From an uncultured Gammaproteobacteria bacterium (lineage in GTDB: Bacteria > Patescibacteriota > Microgenomatia > Daviesbacterales > UBA10151), in the NCBI GenBank assembly GCA_964547465.1, contig CAZJNI010000004.1, forward strand, positions 19,927 to 83,926: a stretch of 64,000 bases of DNA. The letters run 5' to 3'. The notes under the pieces were generated by a model. It was not told where the DNA came from, did not search any database, and saw nothing but the letters and a program-made list of their open reading frames with translations. The position numbers and the translations under genes are program-made. Of this stretch, positions 10,781 through 57,827 are shown piece after piece. The first letter of the stretch is position 1. Each line of letters begins with the position of its first letter.

Positions 10781-11314
10781 ATGATTACCATAATTTTTGA
10801 AGTACATTCCACTACTTTTGATAATGAGAAACATCTTTCTTCTGGACATAATGATGTAGGACTTTCTCCACTTGGTGAAAAGCAAGCAAAGGAATTAGGA
10901 CAAAGATACGAGCATGAAACTTTTGATGCTATATTCTGTTCGGATTTACAAAGATCATATAAAACAGCAGAGATAGCTTTCGGAAAAAGATTTTCAATTA
11001 TTAAAGATAAGAAATTAAGAGAATGTGATTATGGAGATTTAACTGGTCATCCATCAGATGAAGTGGATTCAGCTAAAGTGGAACATATAACTGTGCCGTT
11101 TCCTAATGGAGAATCTTATGAAGACTGTTTGAAAAGAATGAAGGAATTTTTAGATGATCTAAGACAAAAATATCACGATCGTAGTACTTTTGTCCTAATT
11201 ATTGGTCATAGAGCTACACAGTATGGATTAGAATATTTGATAAATGGAAAATCTTTAAAGGAATTAGTAACAACTCCCTTTAAATGGCAACCAGGTTTGA
11301 TTTATAGATTTTAA
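10781..11314 (+). CDS. Histidine phosphatase family protein (phosphoglycerate mutase-like), divergent active site
   Basis: Alignment to dPGM/PhoE fold: EVHSTT..DVGLSPLGEKQAKELG in place of RHGES..DVDLSEKG; second His in IIGHRATQ; canonical RHG replaced by VHS. Confidence 0.5.
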   Translation: MITIIFEVHSTTFDNEKHLSSGHNDVGLSPLGEKQAKELGQRYEHETFDAIFCSDLQRSYKTAEIAFGKRFSIIKDKKLRECDYGDLTGHPSDEVDSAKVEHITVPFPNGESYEDCLKRMKEFLDDLRQKYHDRSTFVLIIGHRATQYGLEYLINGKSLKELVTTPFKWQPGLIYRF

Positions 11315-11703: not shown

Positions 11704-11928
11704 ATGGACAGTAAATTAAGACAGGAAAAATTAAAAATGTGGAAAGAAAATCTAGCTAATTTGGAAAAACAACTGGCAGAGATTTTAATTAAAAAAGGCC
11801 AGGCGGCACAGGAGGGCGATTTATCTGAAAACGCAGCCTACAGCATGGCAATTGAAGATTCTGAAACAGCCAGAGTCAGGATTGAAGAAGTTAAAAAAAT
11901 TATTAAAGATTTGGAAGAGAGTAAATAA
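11704..11928 (+). CDS. Stand-alone GreA/GreB N-terminal coiled-coil domain-like protein (74 aa)
   Basis: [17 protein letters not shown] matches Gre-factor NTD signature GDL(K/S)ENAEY with acidic tip residues; no C-terminal FKBP-like domain; stop overlaps fusA start. Confidence 0.5.
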
Positions 11929-16723: not shown

Positions 16724-17287
16724 ATGGTAGAAAAGGGTCCACAGGTTACATGGAAAGAATATAATGAATGGTATCGGGCTACTCGTGATCAAAGGATTGA
16801 AGGGGAGCTAGCATATGGACAATGGCCTGAAGGAACACCACAAATCTTCATTGATTTAGAAAAGAGAATACCTTCTGAAGAAAGGTCAGATTGGCATCTC
16901 TTAGAGCTTTTTGCTGGACGACATCCGCGTAAGTGGAAATTTACAAGACCATCAATTGAAGAAATTTTAGCCAGACCTGCTGATTATGCAGCTATAAAAG
17001 AAGAAGAATCTAGAAAAAGAATAGAGGCAAGGGGAGGAAAATTATTAAAAGAGCAAGTGGAAGAGGTTTTGGATACTTTGACTGATAGAGAAAACAGAGT
17101 AATGAGGTTAAGATTTGGTTTAGAGGATGGTCGCTCTAGAACCTTAAAAGAGGCTGGTATTGAGTTTGGAATGGAAGTTAGAGGACAGGCCTATTCTGGG
17201 GAAAGAATTCGTCAAATAGAGGCTAAAGCTTTGCGGAAACTTAGACGTCCTTCAATAGTACAACCCCTTCAAGACTATTTAGCATAG
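16724..17287 (+). CDS. Sigma-70 region 4 (HTH) domain protein without region 2
   Basis: C-terminus [25 protein letters not shown]...[17 protein letters not shown] nearly identical to RpoD region 4.2; N-terminal ~110 aa unrelated to sigma regions 1-3. Confidence 0.6.
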
Positions 17288-17378: not shown

Positions 17379-17460
17379 GTCATTGCGAAGCCACGAAGTG
17401 GCTGTGGCAATCTTATTTCAATAAGATTCCCACGACTTACTTCGTAAGTCTCGGGATGAC
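17379..17460. repeat. Palindromic MITE-like element copy B
   Basis: GTCATTGCGAAGCCACGAAGTGGCTGTGGCAATCTTATT...AATAAGATTCCCACGACTTACTTCGTAAGTCTCGGGATGAC. Confidence 0.8.
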
Positions 17461-17746
17461 TAGTTAATATTTTTGTATAGATCCTTGAGGCTTGGATTAA
17501 ATTTACTAATTAATTTTTCTTTTGCTGCTCTATTCCAACTTTTAATCTGTTTTTCTCGCTCAATCGCAGTTTCTGGGTCATAATAAACTTCATAAAATAG
17601 AAGTTCATGAACCTGATATTTTTGGGTGAATCCTTTTACCAGATTATTTTTATGTTGCCAAACTCTTCTTAATAAGTTATTTGTGATTCCTGTGTATAAC
17701 ACTGTTCTAGTGAAGTTACTTAGGATATAGACATAATATTGTTTCA
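17460..17746 (-). CDS. GIY-YIG nuclease family protein (small, UPF0213-like)
   Basis: YYVYILSN...LYTGITNNLLRRVWQH GIY-YIG motif; ORF track extends to 17852 through a MITE copy, true start likely MKQYYVY. Confidence 0.6.
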
Positions 17747-17764
17747 TAAGATTATTATAGATAG

Positions 17765-17840
17765 GATCGCCACGCTTCGCTCGCGATGACGAGATAATAA
17801 GATTCCCACGGTCCGCCTTTGGCGGACCTCGGAATGACAA
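17765..17840. repeat. MITE-like element copy C (rearranged/right-half-rich)
   Basis: CTCGCGATGAC then AATAAGATTCCCACGGTCCGCCTTTGGCGGACCTCGGAATGAC. Confidence 0.7.
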
Positions 17841-17872
17841 TGGTGGGTGCATGCCGGCTATGCATCCTTAGC

Positions 17873-18112
17873 TCATTCAGCCAGATATCCTTTTATTTCT
17901 TCAACTCTTTGCTGAAAGTTTAAAATATCTTCAGGCCAAAGTAGAAATGAATTTCTCCTTCTTTCTCCGTTTTCTCCAACAAAAGCTGATTCTGTTATTT
18001 TTAGATATCTTTTATTATTGGAAGCAACGTAGCAATCAAAGAAGAAAGTTCTTTTACCGCACTTTAACGTAGAAGATTGAACTGGTTTCCTGATCTCTTT
18101 CTGTTTGTCCAT
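17873..18112 (-). CDS. PUR-alpha-like nucleic-acid-binding protein (DUF3276-like)
   Basis: KRTFFFD...NNKRYLKITE resembles PUR repeat/DUF3276 signature; 79 aa. Confidence 0.4.
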   Translation of the reverse strand: MDKQKEIRKPVQSSTLKCGKRTFFFDCYVASNNKRYLKITESAFVGENGERRRNSFLLWPEDILNFQQRVEEIKGYLAE

Positions 18113-19210: not shown

Positions 19211-20006
19211 AAAAAATTCAAATACTACGTCATTGCGAGCCCGCGAAGCGAGGCGTGGCAATCTCATTAAAAAGATTGCTTTGTCGTCAAAGACTCCTCG
19301 CAATGACAGGAGGATTTCTACCCGAGTCAGTTTATCTGTACCAGTGTGTTCATTAGCAGGTAGAGCTGCTGGAAATTTATCACTCCCTAAAGAATTTTTT
19401 GGAGCAGAGGTTAACAAAAAACTTTTAGCTCAAGCGCTAAGAGTTTATACAACTAATCAAAAAAGTTTAACCGGTAATACTAAAACCCGAGGTGAGGTTG
19501 AAGGGTCAACTGCCAAAATTTACAGACAAAAAGGGACAGGTCGGGCCAGGCATGGTGCAATCAGGGCTCCAATATTTGTTGGAGGAGGAATTACTTTTGG
19601 TCCTAAGGAGAGGAAAGTAAGATTAGATCTCCCCCAAAAAATGAAAAAATCTGCGCTAAAGTCTGCGCTGTCCTCTAAAGTAATAGATAAATCTGTAATG
19701 GGATTGTCTGGAATCGAGAAAGCATCAGGTAAGACAAAAGAAATAGCGAAATTAATGTATCAAGTATCAAGTATCAGGTATCAAGGGAAAGATAAAAAAT
19801 CTAAGAAGATTACCAGTACATTAATTGTAACAGGAGATAAGGTAGATAATATACTTCGTGGAGCTAGAAATATTCCAGGGGTTGATATTTTAACAGTTAA
19901 TTTAATTAATGCTTATGAGGTAGCAAGACATGATTTGCTACTTATTACCAAAGAAGCTGTAGATGTTTTAAGCGGAAAGGGTAAAGCGGAAAGGGTAAAG
20001 TTATGA
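19197..20006 (+). CDS. rplD: 50S ribosomal protein L4 (true start possibly in-frame GTG ~19344 downstream of MITE copy)
   Basis: QKGTGRARHGAIRAPIFVGGGITFGP L4 core; first ~50 codons of ORF are encoded by the MITE copy. Confidence 0.85.
   Translation: MPRVKKNSNTTSLRAREARRGNLIKKIALSSKTPRNDRRISTRVSLSVPVCSLAGRAAGNLSLPKEFFGAEVNKKLLAQALRVYTTNQKSLTGNTKTRGEVEGSTAKIYRQKGTGRARHGAIRAPIFVGGGITFGPKERKVRLDLPQKMKKSALKSALSSKVIDKSVMGLSGIEKASGKTKEIAKLMYQVSSIRYQGKDKKSKKITSTLIVTGDKVDNILRGARNIPGVDILTVNLINAYEVARHDLLLITKEAVDVLSGKGKAERVKL
19229..19307. repeat. MITE-like element copy D (inside annotated 5' end of rplD ORF)
   Basis: GTCATTGCGAGCCCGCGAAGCGAGGCGTGGCAATCTCATT...CTCCTCGCAATGAC. Confidence 0.8.
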
Positions 20007-20434
20007 TAATTTTGAAAAGACCAATAATTTCTGAAAAATCTATGAGACTTGCCAAGAGTGGTTTATATACTTTTGAAGTAGATAAAAAAGCCACCAAAGA
20101 CTTAATCTCTAAAGTTGTTGCCCAAACTTTCAATGTTAAAGTTTTAGGGGTTAAAGTAGCTAATGTTAAAGGGAAAATTAAGATGCAAAAGTCGGTAAGA
20201 AAATATTTTAAAACATCCACCATAAAAAAAGCTTTTGTACAAGTTAAAAAAGGTGAGAAAATTGCCATTTTTGAAACACCAAAAGATGAGGAAGCAGTGG
20301 TGACTACAGCTGAAGGTGAACCTCAAATTATGAGGGAGAAAAAAGATTTATTGGGTAGAACAAAGGTGAGAATTGAAAAGCGCGCAGTAGGTGCTGCACC
20401 AACAACCCAGAGGAAAGTGATAACAGGCAAGTAG
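20003..20434 (+). CDS. rplW: 50S ribosomal protein L23 with ~40 aa C-terminal extension
   Basis: L23 homology in first ~95 aa. Confidence 0.85.
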   Translation: MIILKRPIISEKSMRLAKSGLYTFEVDKKATKDLISKVVAQTFNVKVLGVKVANVKGKIKMQKSVRKYFKTSTIKKAFVQVKKGEKIAIFETPKDEEAVVTTAEGEPQIMREKKDLLGRTKVRIEKRAVGAAPTTQRKVITGK

Positions 20435-20452
20435 ATTTATGATTTAGGATTT

Positions 20453-21214
20453 ATGAATATGAAAAAAATAGAAACAAAGAAAAACTTAAAAAAAATATTA
20501 AAAAAACATTCAGGTAGATCATCTGGTGGTATGGTTACTGTCCGGGGTCAGGGCGGCAGACACAAAAGATACTTTAGACAAATAGATTTTAAAAGAGAAA
20601 AATTTGGAGTTGAGGGTTTGGTTGCCGGCATTGAATATGACCCGAATAGAAATGTTGATATTGCTTTAGTTAAATATTCAGATGGTGAATATAGATATAT
20701 TCTTTCCCCAAAAGATCTAAAAGTGGGAGATAAGATTAAATCTGATCAAAAGGTTGAAGCCAAAGTAGGCAATGCTATGAAACTTAAAAATATCACAGTC
20801 GGCGCATTTTTACACAATGTTGAGTTAATGCCTGGTAGAGGTGGACAAATGGGTAGATCTGCGGGTACTGTGATACAACTTTTAGCCAAAGAAGCAGGAT
20901 TTGCGCATTTGAAATTGCCATCTGGTGAAATTAGAATGGTTCCCCTGGAATCAATGGCCACGATCGGCATGTTGGGAAATGAGGAAATGAGAGCCAGAGT
21001 AATAGGCAAAGCCGGAAGATCCCGCCATATGGGGATCAAGCCAACTGTTCGGGGTATTGCCCAGGATCCTGATTCACATCCACACGGTGGGGGCGAGGGA
21101 AGATCTGGAATAGGACGAAAGCGGCCAATGACCAAATATGGTCGTCCTGCTGTTGGTAAAACCAGGAATAAAAAGAAATGGACAAATAAGTATATTATAA
21201 AGAGGATAAATTAA
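20453..21214 (+). CDS. rplB: 50S ribosomal protein L2
   Basis: GRNxxG...HPHGGGEGR motifs. Confidence 0.9.
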
Positions 21215-21521: not shown

Positions 21522-21914
21522 ATGGAAGTTGTAACAATACAAAAATATATGCATACTACCCCCAGAAAGTTAAGACTTGTGGCAGATATGGTTCGTAAGA
21601 TGGCACCCACTCAAGCTTTAGATATTTTAAGGATTACCCCGAAGATGGCAGCTAAAGATTTAAGCAAGGCTTTGGAAACTGTATTGGCAAATGCAAAACA
21701 ACTTGGACTGGATACACAAAATATTTCTCTTAAGTCAATTGAAATAAACGAGAGTACAAAAATGAAAAGATATAGAGCTGGCACAAGAGGCAGGGCAAAG
21801 CCTTTTAAAAGAAGAATGGCACATATTAAAATCGTCGTTACCGACGATTTAAATGTCAAAAGTCAAATGTCAAAAGTCAAAACTGAAAAAGTAGAAGAAA
21901 TGGAGAAGAAATAG
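21522..21914 (+). CDS. rplV: 50S ribosomal protein L22 with repeat-encoded C-terminal tail
   Basis: L22 homology; last 22 aa encoded by 7-nt tandem repeat. Confidence 0.9.
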   Translation: MEVVTIQKYMHTTPRKLRLVADMVRKMAPTQALDILRITPKMAAKDLSKALETVLANAKQLGLDTQNISLKSIEINESTKMKRYRAGTRGRAKPFKRRMAHIKIVVTDDLNVKSQMSKVKTEKVEEMEKK

Positions 21915-22966: not shown

Positions 22967-23314
22967 ATGAAAAAACAAGAATTTGTACAAATTAAAGGAT
23001 TAGATATTAAAGAGTTAAAAGCCAAGGTAGTAGCGCTAAAGGATGAAATTGCCAAACTGACAATGGAAAAAAATAGAAAGATATTAAAAGATCTAAAAAG
23101 TATCTTTAAGAAAAGAAAAGATTTAGCTCAAGTTCTAACTGTTTTAAAACAGAAAGAATTATTGGGACAGTTAGAGTCAAGAGTCAAGAATCAAGAGTCA
23201 AGTGAAGAAGTAAAAAGTCAAAATAATACACCCTCCACTAAAGTGGGGCCAAAAGTTAAAGGTATAAGTAAAAAGGAAAAAGTAAAAAAAGGAAAGGAGA
23301 AATCTAGTCCCTAG
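22967..23314 (+). CDS. rpmC: 50S ribosomal protein L29 with 46 aa C-terminal extension identical to the S17 tail
   Basis: L29 core first ~65 aa; extension encoded by 163 bp direct repeat. Confidence 0.8.
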   Translation: MKKQEFVQIKGLDIKELKAKVVALKDEIAKLTMEKNRKILKDLKSIFKKRKDLAQVLTVLKQKELLGQLESRVKNQESSEEVKSQNNTPSTKVGPKVKGISKKEKVKKGKEKSSP

Positions 23315-23335
23315 ACTCTAGTAACTAGTCACTAA
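23173..23335. repeat. 163 bp perfect direct repeat, copy 1 (3' end of rpmC + junction)
   Basis: Identical to 23648-23810. Confidence 0.9.
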
Positions 23336-23338
23336 CTT

Positions 23339-23779
23339 ATGATAGGTCGTGTTACATCAACAAAAATGCAAAAAACAGCGGTTGTTTTAATAGAAAGAAT
23401 AGCAATGCATCCTTTGTATAAAAAAACTTATAAAAGATCTAAAAAGTATTTAGTGGATGATCCAATAGGAGTTAAAGACGGGGATTTGGTGGAGATTATA
23501 AAAGTTAGCCCTATATCTAGAAATAAACATTGGAGGATTATTAAAGTTGTAGGTAAGAATCTGGCCGAGATTGCGGAAGAGAAGCTAAAGGCTCAAGCTG
23601 AAAAGGTGATTTCAGAAGTAATGCCGGAAGAGAAAGTAGAGTCAAGAGTCAAGAATCAAGAGTCAAGTGAAGAAGTAAAAAGTCAAAATAATACACCCTC
23701 CACTAAAGTGGGGCCAAAAGTTAAAGGTATAAGTAAAAAGGAAAAAGTAAAAAAAGGAAAGGAGAAATCTAGTCCCTAG
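23339..23779 (+). CDS. rpsQ: 30S ribosomal protein S17 with long C-terminal extension
   Basis: S17 core (TKMQKTAVV...HWRIIKVV) then extension whose last 46 aa equal the L29 tail. Confidence 0.85.
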   Translation: MIGRVTSTKMQKTAVVLIERIAMHPLYKKTYKRSKKYLVDDPIGVKDGDLVEIIKVSPISRNKHWRIIKVVGKNLAEIAEEKLKAQAEKVISEVMPEEKVESRVKNQESSEEVKSQNNTPSTKVGPKVKGISKKEKVKKGKEKSSP

Positions 23780-23810
23780 ACTCTAGTAACTAGTCACTAA
23801 TTATATGGTT
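23648..23810. repeat. 163 bp perfect direct repeat, copy 2 (3' end of rpsQ + junction)
   Basis: Identical to 23173-23335. Confidence 0.9.
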
Positions 23811-24173: not shown

Positions 24174-24508
24174 TGAAAAAATTAAAAATTAAAAATTTAA
24201 AATTAAAAATTAAGAAAGGAGATAAGGTCAAAATTTTGCTTGGTAAAGATAGAGGTAAGGAAGGATCAGTCGCTTATGTTTTAGGGAAAAGTAGAAAGGT
24301 ATTTGTTGAAGGAGCAAATCTTTACAAAAGACATGTCAAAAAAATGCAAGAGGTTAAAGGAAGAATTATTGATATACCAAAACCAATGAGTATCTCTAAT
24401 GTTGCTCTGATATGTCCTAATTGCAAAAAGATCACAAGGATAGGATACAAAAAGCTAGGAAATGATAAGGTAAGAATCTGTAAAAAGTGTAAGAAGGAGA
24501 TTAAATGA
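24167..24508 (+). CDS. rplX: 50S ribosomal protein L24 with C-terminal CxxC...CxxC zinc-ribbon extension
   Basis: KOW motif [16 protein letters not shown]; tail CPNCKK...CKKCKK; N-terminus encoded by (AAAAATT)x5 repeat. Confidence 0.85.
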
Positions 24509-24597: not shown

Positions 24598-25164
24598 ATG
24601 ACTATGGATAGACTTAAGGAAAAATATTTAAAAGAAATAAGAGCTAAACTGCAACAGGAGCTGGGTATTAAAAATGCACTGGCTGTTCCACAGGTGGAAA
24701 AAGTGGTTATCAGTATTGGTTTAGGTGAGGCAAAAGAGAATAAGGATGTATTAGAAAAAGCTAAGGTTTATTTAACAGCTTTGGCTGGACAAACACCGGT
24801 TGTGACTCTGGCCAAAAAATCAATTGCATCTTTTAAGGTATCAGTCGGTCAACCAATTGGGATGATGGTTACATTAAGAGGGACAAGAATGTATGCCTTT
24901 TTGGATAAATTGATAAATATAGTTTTACCAAAGGTAAGAGATTTTAAAGGAATTTCTCAAAGCTCTTTTGATAGCATGGGAAATTTAAATATTGGTTTGC
25001 GGGAACAGACTGTTTTCCCGGAAGTTGATTATAAAACAGTTGATAAAGTTAGAGGGTTAGCAGTTACTATTACAACAACAAGCAAAAATCAAGAGCAAGG
25101 CAAAAAGCTTTTAGAGCTTTTAGGAATGCCTTTTAGAAAGGACAGTCAAGTCGCTAGAGTCTAG
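24598..25164 (+). CDS. rplE: 50S ribosomal protein L5
   Basis: L5 homology, 188 aa. Confidence 0.9.
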   Translation: MTMDRLKEKYLKEIRAKLQQELGIKNALAVPQVEKVVISIGLGEAKENKDVLEKAKVYLTALAGQTPVVTLAKKSIASFKVSVGQPIGMMVTLRGTRMYAFLDKLINIVLPKVRDFKGISQSSFDSMGNLNIGLREQTVFPEVDYKTVDKVRGLAVTITTTSKNQEQGKKLLELLGMPFRKDSQVARV

Positions 25165-25183
25165 GTTCTAGTCACTATAATTT

Positions 25184-29441: not shown

Positions 29442-30180
29442 GCTGGAGTTGATGAGAAAGTCTGGCAAGATTGCCTCATCTGCTCTGAAAAAAGCCACAG
29501 AGGCAATCAAGACGGGTGTAACTGAATTGGAAGTGGATAAAGTAGCGCAGGATGAGATTTATAAATTGGGTGGAAATTTGTCTTATAAGACTGTACCTGG
29601 GTACAACTATGCTACCTGTATAACCGTTAATGAACAGGTGGTGCATGGAATACCAACAGAGCGAAAGTTTAAGAGTGGAGATTTGGTAAGTATAGATTTG
29701 GCAGTTGAGTATAAGGGTTGGCATACAGATTGTGCATGGTCAGTGTTAGTGGGTCATGAGTCAAGTGTCAAGGGTCATGAAGAGAAAAAAAAATTTTTAA
29801 GCGTTGGAGAGCAGGCTCTTTGGGAAGGAATTGATAAAGCAATTGAAGGAAATAGCATTGGAGATATTTCAAATACTATTCAAAGTAGAGTTGAGGGTGC
29901 AGGCTACAGCGTAGTCAGGAGTTTGGTAGGTCACGGGGTTGGGAAAAGCCTGCATGAAGAACCGGAAATACCAGGGTTTGGAAAAGCGGGAGTTGGGGTA
30001 AGGTTAAAAGAAGGTATGACTTTGGCACTGGAGGTAATTTACACAAGCGGAAATCCGGAAGTGGTTTTAGAAGAAGATGGATGGACATTTTCCACATCAG
30101 ATGGTTCCTGGGGGGGTTTATTTGAAATGACAATAATTGTAGGAAAAAAGGAAGCTAAAGTATTAACCCGCCTTCGTTGA
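29419..30180 (+). CDS. map: Methionine aminopeptidase type I
   Basis: MAP pita-bread fold metal ligands (D..D..H..E..E pattern), ORF opens at 29389; start likely internal Met overlapping adk end. Confidence 0.85.
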   Translation: MKSRNRYELELMRKSGKIASSALKKATEAIKTGVTELEVDKVAQDEIYKLGGNLSYKTVPGYNYATCITVNEQVVHGIPTERKFKSGDLVSIDLAVEYKGWHTDCAWSVLVGHESSVKGHEEKKKFLSVGEQALWEGIDKAIEGNSIGDISNTIQSRVEGAGYSVVRSLVGHGVGKSLHEEPEIPGFGKAGVGVRLKEGMTLALEVIYTSGNPEVVLEEDGWTFSTSDGSWGGLFEMTIIVGKKEAKVLTRLR

Positions 30181-30504: not shown

Positions 30505-30621
30505 ATGAAAGTAGCAGCCAGTATTAAAAAAAGATGTAAAGCGTGTAAAATAGTCAAGAGAAGTGGCATTTTGTATGTCATTTGCCCTCGTGATCCAAGA
30601 CACAAACAGAGGCAAGGATAA
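30505..30621 (+). CDS. rpmJ: 50S ribosomal protein L36 (38 aa); absent from ORF track
   Basis: [38 protein letters not shown]; C..C...C..H zinc ribbon. Confidence 0.85.
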
Positions 30622-30627
30622 TTATGA

Positions 30628-30658
30628 ATTTACAATTTACAATTTACAATTTACAATT
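30628..30658. repeat. (ATTTACA)x4 tandem heptamer in rpmJ-rpsM intergenic region
   Basis: Direct inspection. Confidence 0.8.
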
Positions 30659-30673
30659 CGGAGGTAATTATTA

Positions 30674-31099
30674 ATGGCTCGTATAGCTGGTGTGGATCTT
30701 CCTGAAAATAAAAGATTGGATATTGGTTTAACCTATATATTTGGGATAGGCCCGTCAAACGTAAAATTAGTCTTAAAAGAGACTGGGGTTGATCCGGCAA
30801 AAAGAATAAAAGATTTAACAGAAGATGAAGTTGGGAAGCTGCAAAAGGGAGTTGAGAAATTTAAAGTAGAGGGAGACCTGCACCAGGAAGTTTCTCAAAA
30901 TATCAAAAGACTGGAAGATATCGGCAGTTACAGGGGACTGCGACACAGGAAAAATTTACCATCCAGAGGTCAAAGAACCAGATCTAATGCCAGAACAAAA
31001 AGAGGAAAGAGAAAAACAATTGGTGCAATGAAAAAAGTTGAACAGGCAACACGCCCCTCCGATGGAGGTAAAACAGAAGGAGTCAAACCAAATGCCTAA
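30674..31099 (+). CDS. rpsM: 30S ribosomal protein S13
   Basis: S13 homology, 141 aa. Confidence 0.9.
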
Positions 31100-42286: not shown

Positions 42287-42357
42287 CGGGGAGTAGTATA
42301 GTGGTAACACGCCGCGCTGGGGGTGCGGCATCGGGAGTCCGATTCTCCCCTCCCCGA
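42287..42357 (+). tRNA. tRNA-Pro (anticodon GGG), atypical T-loop TCCGATT
   Basis: Hand-folded cloverleaf: acceptor CGGGGAG/CTCCCCG, D-arm AGTGGTA loop, anticodon stem CCGCG/TGCGG loop CTGGGGG, T-stem GGGAG/CTCCC, discriminator A. Confidence 0.55.
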
Positions 42358-43511: not shown

Positions 43512-44002
43512 TGGATTCCCTGGCATTTAAATTACTTCTGAATAAACTCTACAGACTTATCTCTATCAGAGCTAGATCGGAAAAAGAAATCAGAGATTAT
43601 TTAAGGGTAAAGGGTAAAGGGTTAAGGGGAAAGAAAATAGAGATAAATGATAAGATGATTGAGTATCTAATAGATACCCTAAAGCAGCAAAATCTTATTA
43701 ATGATTTAGGGTTTGCTAAAGCTTGGGTGGAATCAAGGAGCAGGAAAAAAGGGATGAGAGTTATCCGGCAGGAGTTATTTCAAAAAGGAATTGACAGGGA
43801 AATTGTGTCAAGTATCATGGGTCAAGTGTCAAGTATAGAAGAACAGAAAACAGCAGAAAAATTGCTTGAAAAAAAATTAAGAGTTTGGAAAAATTTACCC
43901 AATTTAGAATTTAAGAAAAAGGCATATGATTTCTTACTAAGAAGAGGATTTGAATATGGAATAGTGAAAGATGCCATTGAAAATATTATAAAAAAGATGT
44001 AA
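43511..44002 (+). CDS. recX: Regulatory protein RecX
   Basis: Helical repeat protein directly downstream of recA, RecX-like 163 aa. Confidence 0.65.
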   Translation: MDSLAFKLLLNKLYRLISIRARSEKEIRDYLRVKGKGLRGKKIEINDKMIEYLIDTLKQQNLINDLGFAKAWVESRSRKKGMRVIRQELFQKGIDREIVSSIMGQVSSIEEQKTAEKLLEKKLRVWKNLPNLEFKKKAYDFLLRRGFEYGIVKDAIENIIKKM

Positions 44003-55384: not shown

Positions 55385-55391
55385 ATTTTTT

Positions 55392-55715
55392 GCCTAGGAA
55401 GAGGGTAAGCCAGATTCTGTTTCAAGATGATCATTTATCTAGACTGTGATTTTTAATGTCACATCTTCCGCCAGTCGGCGGATGCTCCTTATTTAAACTA
55501 TTAAGCGAGCAGCTTAGTTTTTTCTAGGATTGCAGCGGGGAGGATTGCCACGTTTCACCCGAGCTTGACCCCGGTTCGTCACTGTTGCTCTATACTCTGT
55601 CTTACGACCGTCCGACTTACGCCGGACACCCTGCTCTATGCTGTCTGGACTTTCCTCCCGTTCAAATTTCTTTTAGAAATTTGCGCGGGCGATCATCCTT
55701 CTTCCTAGGCCGATA
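55392..55715 (-). ncRNA. rnpB: RNase P RNA (bacterial type A-like, compact)
   Basis: Minus strand contains GGAGGAAAGTCCAGAC...CATAGAGCAGGGTG (CR-I/P4), GGGTGAAACGTGG (CR-II-like), AACAGAATCTGGCTTA (CR-V/P4 3' strand); P1 GGCCTAGGAAGAAGG/CCTCTTCCTAGGC; upstream TTGAAT-17-TAAAAT promoter at 55722-55751 on minus strand. Confidence 0.75.
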
Positions 55716-57524: not shown

Positions 57525-57827
57525 TCAAAAAAAATTTAGATTCACAATATGATTATTTATTAAAAAATATAGAATAATTTGTGCTCCAATTGCAGCTCCT
57601 GAAAAAGTTAATATCTTTAAAAGATCTTGATGAAGATAGATTACATCGGTAGCTGGCTCGCTTCGCGAAGTGGGTAGCTGGCTCGCTTCGCGAAGTGGGT
57701 AGTCGGTAGTATGGGTAGCTACAGACTGCTTGCTACTAGCTACTGATTCCCGACCATAAAATTGCTGACGGAGAATTTTCAGGCGTTTTTCTAAATCTGA
57801 CTGTTTTTTAGTTTGTTGAATAGCCAT
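57525..57827 (-). CDS. Small single-pass membrane protein containing frame-shifting 25-nt tandem repeat
   Basis: C-terminal TM ILTFSGAAIGAQIILYFLI; repeat 57649-57698. Confidence 0.3.
   Translation of the reverse strand: MAIQQTKKQSDLEKRLKILRQQFYGRESVASSKQSVATHTTDYPLREASQLPTSRSEPATDVIYLHQDLLKILTFSGAAIGAQIILYFLINNHIVNLNFF
57649..57698. repeat. 25-nt direct tandem repeat x2 (GGTAGCTGGCTCGCTTCGCGAAGTG) containing palindrome CTTCGCGAAG
   Basis: Direct inspection. Confidence 0.85.

Follow-up and report, generated by a model that had tools for sequence, protein, structure and literature searches.

A 64,000-nucleotide (nt) stretch of an uncultured member of the Daviesbacterales (contig CAZJNI010000004.1, positions 19,927 to 83,926), referred to throughout as the window, was analysed with respect to a repeated element found at the ends of two neighbouring ribosomal protein genes. 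The gene content of the window corresponds to the classical rpoBC-str-S10-spc-alpha region, without L30. The first of the two genes, rpmC (22967-23314, + strand), encodes a uL29 protein of 115 amino acids (aa) with a core of approximately residues 1-69 followed by a 46-aa tail, and the second, rpsQ (23339-23779, + strand), encodes a 146-aa uS17 protein consisting of an oligonucleotide/oligosaccharide-binding (OB) fold core (residues 1-72), a helix conserved in the clade (residues 75-94) and the same 46-aa tail. These identities are supported by Pfam domains, with PF00831 and PF00366 found on the identical database proteins P0121 and P0001, respectively, and by the conserved operon order L16-L29-S17-L14. 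The closest database matches of both proteins were from Candidatus Daviesbacteria (Patescibacteria/candidate phyla radiation; CPR).

The tails are encoded by a perfect direct repeat, in which 23172-23335 equals 23637-23800 (164 nt, 100% identity, start-to-start distance of 465 nt) and identity extends no further on either side. No other long repeat of such size is present in the 64-kb window, which excludes a chance origin. The original prediction had described a perfect direct repeat at the ends of the L29 and S17 genes, and this was confirmed; its first interval (23173-23335) is correct to within 1 nt, while its second (23648-23810) is displaced by approximately 10 nt and does not delimit the repeat. 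Both copies encode ESRVKNQESSEEVKSQNNTPSTKVGPKVKGISKKEKVKKGKEKSSP plus a TAG stop codon (23312-23314 in L29 and 23777-23779 in S17), after which 21 nt are common to both (ACTCTAGTAACTAGTCACTAA), so that translation of the two copies bore out the predicted Lys/Glu-rich 46-aa tail, stop and 21-nt spacer. Copy 1 (23172-23335, + strand) thus covers the final 141 nt of rpmC and the 21-nt spacer that precedes rpsQ, and copy 2 (23637-23800, + strand) the final 141 nt of rpsQ and the same 21 nt ahead of rplN. From the end of the common 21 nt there are 3 nt to the ATG of rpsQ (23339) and 4 nt to that of rplN (23805), giving stop-to-start distances of 24 nt and 25 nt, respectively.

Each copy is composed largely of 7-nt tandem units (heptads), all on the + strand. 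The 5' end is formed by (AGAGTCA) x4.3 (23173-23202 and 23638-23667), which was detected by Tandem Repeats Finder (TRF) and a period-7 scan and encodes ESRVKNQESS; an AGAGTCA-type array also opens the tails of L22, L29, S17, L17 and GrpE in relatives. A middle, A-rich array, (AAAGGAA) x4.4 (23258-23288 and 23723-23753; TRF), encodes the Lys/Glu stretch and is followed by an extended Shine-Dalgarno (SD)-like sequence, AGGAAAGGAG (23290-23299 and 23755-23764), located 39 nt upstream of the rpsQ ATG. The 3' array comprises 4.4 copies of a CTAG heptad (CTAGTCC CTAGACT CTAGTAA CTAGTCA CTAA; 23304-23334 and 23769-23799; TRF), contains the stop codon of L29 or S17, and, as the unit length of 7 is not divisible by 3, offers TAG in every frame. 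This array ends 4 nt before the ATG of rpsQ and 5 nt before that of rplN, and the boundaries of the repeat coincide with the two outer arrays. A partial third copy of the junction element, GAAAGGACAGTCAAGTCGCTAGAGTCTAGGTTCTAGTCACTATAATTT (25136-25183, + strand), lies in the rplE-rpsN gap with a 79% match to cassette positions 121-163, and by reading into it L5 gains seven residues (DSQVARV) past its native ...PFRK end. The C-terminal tail of L22 also contains a heptad array, (AAAAGTC) x4.6 (21851-21882, + strand; TRF), with a weak relationship to the cassette (75% over 56 nt, extending to 21912).

Relatives were sampled as 54 Daviesbacteria-like S17 loci from a genome-collection scan and nine from targeted look-up, and were compared as 5-kb neighbourhoods; their loci carry three-digit labels (L001-L109), as distinct from the ribosomal proteins L22, L29, S17 and others. 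Nine period-7 arrays of at least four units were found in the window compared with 0.17 in shuffles, seven of them in the ribosomal operon, and no array at period 6 or at periods 8-12 was present in the window. There were 55 period-7 arrays in 277 kb of Daviesbacteria loci, compared with 2 in 130 kb of other phyla. For 36 spacers (L29>S17 and S17>L14) no shorter than 12 nt, identity at a lag of 7 was 0.50, as opposed to 0.22-0.29 at all the others. Stops in all three frames were present in 24 of these spacers, a type that includes both spacers of the window, relative to 6.7 +/- 2.1 in shuffles, and a single spacer of the 36 had an SD-like motif 18 nt or less from the ATG.

Period-7 arrays of approximately four units (approximately 30 nt) and many unit types were also observed elsewhere in the window, at 19752-19787, 19970-20000, 20434-20456, 21849-21890 and 24174-24217, with further arrays at 29750-29777, 30619-30663, 43599-43634, 43805-43834 and 1186-1227. 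They are located in ribosomal protein tails, before the starts of L23, L2 and S13, at the N-terminus of L24, and also within the coding regions of L4, map, recX and yceG. A perfect (AATTTAC) x4.6 array lies directly upstream of the SD sequence of S13 and overlaps a sub-threshold Rfam match to Alpha_RBS (30618-30706; 30.3 bits, gathering score 38), and AATTTAC/AATGTAC arrays similar to it are present in L012, L018 and L033.

Self-comparison of the relatives' loci revealed dispersed shared cassettes in approximately 19 of 62 Daviesbacteria loci, compared with 1 of 26 control loci of other phyla. These tail-plus-junction cassettes are 60-160 nt long, are shared at 73-97% identity between the ends of L22, L29, S17 and other genes, and fall into at least five sequence families. 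Sharing between L29 and S17 was found in the window, L083/L084, L010 (89% over 65 nt), L025 and L109; between L22 and S17 in L033 (91% over 134 nt), L020, L024, L002, L004 and L065; and between L22 and L29 in L082 (80% over 100 nt) and L037. One cassette is common to all three genes in L010, and other junctions share cassettes in L008, L045, L048, L049, L051 and L052. In the nearest relatives, L083 and L084 (S17 core 90% identical), which derive from two independent European Nucleotide Archive (ENA) assemblies, L29 (115 aa) and S17 (149 aa) share a different cassette, approximately 82% identical over 157 nt up to the next ATG and unrelated to the type in the window. The tail type ESRVESQESS...KEKTSP is carried by S17 in some genomes and by L29 in others, and the types VVVDNSTKKP...GRTELSK and LSVLGGQLS...NRKTGGKK likewise alternate between S17 and L29 by genome. 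Matches between different genes of different genomes rival orthologous ones at the DNA level, as when L29 of L010 and S17 of L002 are compared at their junctions (94% over 65 nt).

The window cassette itself matches orthologous copies at no more than 74% over its full length, against 100% within the window. Its best full-length matches are the S17 copies of L108, L085/86 and L109 (68-74% over approximately 166 nt). The L29 gene of L108 has no cassette and only a short tail, and the close L29 relatives L081 and L108 end in LESRVKNQESS, which corresponds to the 5' array, even with such short tails.

The 62 nt before the downstream ATG were aligned for 16 junctions (L22>S3, L29>S17, S17>L14 and L5>S14) drawn from eleven genomes, the window among them, yielding the consensus AGAAAGGAGAAA(A/T)CTAGTCnCTAGACTCTAGCGACTAGTCACTAAnTT-ATG. 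Junctions are typically 75-94% identical, also between different genes of different species, whereas synonymous sites in the neighbouring S17 core have reached saturation (pS, the synonymous divergence, of 0.73). In the relatives, virtually all array-type junctions have the motif AGAAAGGAG ahead of the array, which stops 3-6 nt short of the next ATG, and the tail ends KEKSSP*, KEKTSH*, KSLKADS* and KEKSES* result from in-frame reading of AGAAAGGAG and the first part of the array. A metagenome scan with CTAGACTCTAGNNACTAGTCACTA returned 20 loci in which the array ends 1-6 nt ahead of an ATG, the genes behind it being dnaK, L13, S3, S17, L14, a Lon-like gene, a thiolase-like gene and a gene for a small membrane protein. 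In the dnaK case the array follows grpE, whose tail also begins with an AGAGTC array, and in the L13 case it follows L17; ahead of the Lon-like gene it sits behind a promoter-like sequence with no upstream open reading frame (ORF). The gene upstream of the small membrane protein resembles, by eye, the 23S-rRNA-intervening-sequence four-helix-bundle family. The CTAG element is therefore a general pre-start element of the clade rather than a ribosomal protein feature. On six Daviesbacteria-like contigs (L088, L089, L090, L097, L102 and L106), a CTAG array was observed between a gene that likewise resembles this family by eye, ending in ..VLSGLLKST*, and a hydrophobic protein of approximately 105-115 aa, and the 70 nt upstream are nearly identical between these contigs.

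No GGAG, GAGG or AGGA is present within 18 nt of the S17, L14 and S14 starts in the window. Most genomes instead have a compact ATGA stop/start overlap, with the SD sequence encoded in the K/E-rich end of the tail. The end of rplQ in the window (L17; 33278-33526) encodes ..RKGISRLSKTK on ...GATTGTCCAAAACAAAATGA and has the same 'TTGTCCAAAA + ATGA' end as tails of the GRTELSKTK type, which are found on L29 or S17 in other genomes; loci L001, L049, L065 and L016 belong with this observation. Some copies of the 'TTGTCCAAAA + ATGA' end have a GGACA...TGTCC hairpin beside the SD sequence, and these ends look like a second family of junction modules.

The two copies in the window are likely to be the result of a recent duplication within the operon, or an ectopic gene conversion, of a modular intercistronic cassette. 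Identity within the genome exceeds identity to orthologues, and the phenomenon recurs with independent sequence types, the pattern expected of gene conversion. Of the two explanations offered by the original prediction, this favours the first, a recent segmental duplication of a tail-and-junction cassette. The rpsQ-rplN junction was probably the source of the copy and the rpmC-rpsQ junction the recipient, with S17 as the putative donor, as the best full-length matches are S17 copies and the L29 gene of L108 lacks the cassette.

In the proposed model the cassette runs, from 5' to 3', from (AGAGTCA)n through a variable A-rich stretch, the extended SD-like AGAAAGGAG, (CTAGnnn)n and CTAAnTT to the ATG of the next gene, and the upstream gene reads into it up to the first in-frame stop. 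L29 and S17 would gain the same disordered Lys/Glu tail because each reads into the cassette. Array homology already present at two neighbouring junctions may have allowed the transfer, by ectopic gene conversion or template switching, and as the end arrays would supply this homology, repeated exchange of cassettes could occur among the ends of L22, L29, S17, L5, L17 and GrpE. Recombination between the direct copies would delete the S17 core, and such products would presumably be removed by selection. Since the cassette ends at the downstream ATG and has stops in all frames, it could be inserted behind any ORF without fusing genes, and transfers may be tolerated even in essential operons for this reason.

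The lengths of L29 (115 aa) and S17 (146 aa) given by the original prediction were confirmed from the ORFs. Its statement that both are far longer than in other bacteria has to be qualified for this clade, where S17 lengths of approximately 100-160 aa, mostly 125-150 aa, are normal and L29 is at the upper end of a range of 71-116 aa. AlphaFold modelling of S17 from a 19-sequence alignment gave predicted local distance difference test (pLDDT) scores of 83-95 for the OB core, a clade-specific helix at residues 75-94, and scores of approximately 40-52 without secondary structure for residues 100-146, and the shared tail is accordingly predicted to be disordered. In 14 genome pairs with alignable S17 tails, the ratio of nonsynonymous to synonymous divergence (pN/pS) was 0.68 in the tail and 0.30 in the core, a contrast that is biased because the pairs were chosen by tail similarity. 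Synonymous divergence in the same pairs was 0.33 in the tail, far below the 0.73 of the core, which points to constraint at the level of nucleotides rather than peptide, or to tails of more recent common ancestry. Along the cassette, the two outer arrays and the spacer are the most conserved parts, and the peptide-coding middle is the least. With the 46-aa tail alone as protein query, a word-indexed search returned no candidates and exhaustive phmmer none at E <= 0.001; tail carriers were therefore sought in the DNA loci, the tail being a short, low-complexity query.

It is unlikely that protein-level selection has kept the same cationic disordered tail on L29 (in the 50S subunit) and S17 (in the 30S subunit), for instance to bind rRNA, to contact a common partner or to aid assembly. 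The Lys-rich tail has a net charge of approximately +7, as is typical of rRNA-binding extensions, both genes switched cassette type together in two close lineages (the window and L083), and lineage-specific added regions are known on CPR ribosomal proteins (10.1101/2022.01.07.475337). Yet the L29 and S17 tails are unrelated to each other in approximately 47 of 51 species-level relatives, and the tails of close relatives differ completely. A single cassette is moreover read in different frames: in L020 it gives ..KGEKSDS* on L22 and ..RKSLIADS* on S17, and in L093 the L29 gene reads the CTAG array in another frame, ending in ..RRIVPRL* one unit later than usual. The tail's pN/pS, its predicted disorder and the concentration of conservation in the non-coding spacer and arrays rather than the peptide-coding middle also argue against selection on the peptide, and the same element lies ahead of genes with no upstream ORF (L095 and L102). 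The protein tail is probably in large part a by-product of reading into the intercistronic module.

The 5' tail array and the 3' junction array are reverse complements of each other in several cassette families. Duplex energy averaged -21.1 kcal/mol for matched arms compared with -15.4 kcal/mol for mismatched arms (permutation P < 2e-4), and complementarity reached z scores of -3.7 to -8 in the four independent CTGA, TAnACCC, CACTnAG and CTTnnCC families; 5' arms preferred their own 3' arm in 5/6 cases in one representative set and 2/6 in a second. RNAalifold on eight CTGA-family S17 cassettes gave a long-range helix of 19 pairs with no compensatory change, and mismatches in the array pairing were 14 G-U compared with 25 A-C. 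The complementarity is thus real but appears DNA-like, and an RNA stem is not proven, as there is neither an excess of G-U nor compensatory change; a sense-RNA hairpin between the 5' and 3' arrays was set aside on these same results. No Rfam match was obtained at the repeat. Inspection by eye also spoke against taking the arrays for promoters (TTGACT-like motifs, leaderless -10), as spacing and hexamers do not fit. The sequence ..CTAACTTTATG may resemble the T7 'epsilon' enhancer UUAACUUUA.

The inverted ends, with their DNA-like mismatches, would suit a selfish mobile element of approximately 100-165 bp, resembling a miniature inverted-repeat transposable element (MITE) or a Rickettsia palindromic element (RPE) and inserted independently at both gene ends, as would its size, which is typical of MITEs, and its presence at many unrelated junctions. 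Such an origin is nevertheless quite improbable for the window. There is no target-site duplication at either copy and the flanks differ, the 64 kb hold two full copies and one partial copy, all within one operon, and no transposase was seen in the window. Subtypes are also kept by junction across genomes, as for the L22 subtype, and each copy ends a few nt ahead of a start codon.

An assembly artefact, in which a single copy, or two strain variants with the tail on different genes, gave a repeat or strain bubble that was threaded twice, is very unlikely. The contig is metagenome-assembled, exact matches to L29 and S17 are known from just one NCBI contig, of 89,850 bp, and bubble-popping would be expected to leave 164 nt of perfect identity. 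However, an artefact would need four false junctions, and both ORFs are in frame with the next ATG correctly spaced (24 and 25 nt). Diverged copies in the same arrangement occur in L083 and L084, from their independent assemblies, as well as in L010, L109, L033, L082 and others, and a collapse is unable to create non-identical copies. The architecture of a tail shared by L29 and S17 is thus real in kind and not made by an assembler, because L083 and L084 have diverged copies of their own. A template/variable repeat pair of a diversity-generating retroelement was rejected as the copies are identical, no reverse transcriptase domain was found in the 20 window ORFs scanned against Pfam, and no unexplained ORF of reverse transcriptase size lies near the repeat.

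Taking duplication or conversion of an intercistronic cassette as the likely origin, the further question is what the 3' array does. It may, as a tentative proposal, act in termination-reinitiation (coupling or insulation) or in SD-independent initiation of the downstream gene, and not for the protein. More broadly, and a little more tentatively again, Daviesbacteria and perhaps other CPR might use conserved heptad arrays, such as CTAGACTCTAGCGACTAGTCACTAA, as distinct intercistronic or leader elements that would stop upstream translation in any frame, promote SD-independent (re)initiation at an ATG 3-6 nt further on, and travel as cassettes, with new disordered tails on proteins of both subunits as a side effect.

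Several observations weigh against these readings of origin and function. The direction of transfer from S17 to L29 is judged solely by which relatives match at full length, and the perfect identity of the copies may partly be an assembler's consensus of near-identical ones. In the CTAG cassette of the window, array complementarity is weak (z of -0.5 and -1.5), and folding gave no significant structure for either the repeat (z = -0.59) or the junction (z = +0.37). The translational role of the 3' array is deduced from sequence only, and the lack of a nearby SD sequence is not exceptional in itself, since an SD-like 4-mer at -18 to -4 is present in approximately one third of window genes. A protein-level role for the +7-charged tail also stays conceivable.

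Other features of the window were noted. The gap between rpsJ (S10) and rplC (L3) contains three inserted genes, which is unusual within the S10 operon: a 187-aa protein with a Sigma-70 region 4 domain (16724-17287), an ORF with a GIY-YIG nuclease domain (17460-17852, - strand) and a DUF3276 ORF (17873-18112, - strand). Between rpsG (S7) and fusA are a histidine-phosphatase gene of the His_Phos_1 family (10781-11314) and a 74-aa ORF resembling the GreA N-terminus (11704-11928). A perfect 25-nt tandem repeat, GGTAGCTGGCTCGCTTCGCGAAGTG x2.2 (57648-57702), is G+C-rich in an A+T-rich genome and lies in a region of minus-strand ORFs. The only RNAs of the window at the Rfam gathering level are RNase P RNA class A (55390-55708, - strand, 123 bits) and one tRNA (42287-42357, + strand).

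Reading into movable, frame-tolerant intercistronic modules would offer, in place of innovation at the protein level, a route by which essential and conserved ribosomal proteins gain or exchange C-terminal extensions, and it cautions against taking the extensions of CPR ribosomal proteins for adaptive features of the ribosome. Dispersed repeats of 100-160 bp in the ribosomal protein block can also mislead assembly, binning and ribosomal protein phylogenies.

Tandem 7-nt units of another kind have reportedly been described in heterocystous cyanobacteria, by Mazel and colleagues in 1990, as short tandemly repeated repetitive (STRR) sequences, which are said to be intergenic and to have G/C-containing units such as CCCCAGT. 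Like the cassette arrays, they are lineage-typical and of unknown function; to our knowledge, no link of STRR sequences to start codons or protein tails has been described. RPEs, reportedly described by Ogata and colleagues in 2000, are said to be short repeats inserted in frame in protein-coding genes. They share with the cassette the entry of short (approximately 100-150 bp) repeated DNA into ORFs, the addition of peptide to conserved and even essential proteins, and an inverted-repeat character, but differ in having many copies anywhere in ORFs, untied to junctions or start codons, and no heptad arrays. Nothing in the present data points to transposition of the cassette.

The tandem repeats of Borgs are reported to be pervasive, recently formed and under selection that favours new disordered protein regions (PMC9879509). 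In both cases fast-evolving nucleotide tandem repeats generate disordered protein regions; the unit here is 7 nt and not a multiple of 3, the arrays are at gene ends and junctions, and the peptide appears secondary. A survey of CPR ribosomes found added terminal regions of unknown function on many ribosomal proteins, among them an S19 tail rich in Ala and Lys, as well as enlarged L22 and L23 (Tsurumaki et al. 2022, 10.1101/2022.01.07.475337). That survey contains no tails shared between proteins, heptad arrays or junction cassettes, and does not list L29 and S17 as larger (10.1101/2022.01.07.475337).

The closest parallel is with the TAACTGA heptamer, which forms direct repeats upstream of start codons in Beggiatoaceae, Cyanobacteria and Bacteroidetes (MacGregor 2015, Front Microbiol, PMC4679880), and for which function is unexplained and a translational role has been proposed (PMC4679880). 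Both the TAACTGA repeats and the window array have a 7-nt unit in 2-6 tandem copies that end a few nt before a start codon, stop all three frames in forward orientation, and overlap only the end of the upstream ORF (PMC4679880). Canonical SD sequences are mostly absent from TAACTGA repeats and Daviesbacteria arrays alike, both occur inside ribosomal protein operons, and translatability in reverse orientation (LSVISYQ for TAACTGA) is common to both (PMC4679880). The unit sequences of the window differ (CTAGnnn and AGAGTCA; the match to TAACTGA of 16/28 is at shuffle level), and no exact TAACTGA tandem was found in any Daviesbacteria locus.

In L083, by comparison, the 5' end of the cassette of L29 and S17 matches (TCAGTTA)4 and the 3' end matches (TAACTGA)4 at 23-24 of 28 positions, where shuffles reached at most 19. 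The LSVLGGQLS... tails of L29 and S17 (231-387 and 683-832 in L083; also in L015 and L018) were observed to be encoded by reverse TAACTGA-like heptads (TCAGTTA; 23/28), with forward AAACTGA/TAACAGA heptads near the 3' end. Such heptads link the Daviesbacteria directly to the heptamer of Beggiatoaceae and cyanobacteria. Many unit sequences coexist in the Daviesbacteria, unlike in the TAACTGA system, and the arrays form a cassette with a conserved AGAAAGGAG and a coding tail. The copying of whole cassettes of 60-164 nt between gene ends, which results in shared tails, is a Daviesbacteria trait undescribed for TAACTGA, and the CPR lineage is itself new for such repeats.

Heptamer repeats ahead of start codons are thereby extended to the CPR, in many families and at defined positions before essential genes without a nearby SD sequence. 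The question of their function is now directly testable, in junctions that are 75-94% conserved where neighbouring synonymous sites are saturated. If true, the reading of the arrays as pre-start initiation elements would place the TAACTGA-type repeats of Beggiatoaceae and cyanobacteria in a functional setting. No specific report of heptad repeats in CPR/Patescibacteria came up in literature searches. What is new here is the CPR lineage, the diversity of unit families, the module of AGAAAGGAG plus array and the pairing of inverted arrays, and, most notably, the way whole tail-plus-junction cassettes are copied from one ribosomal protein gene to another, resulting in identical tails on proteins of both ribosomal subunits.

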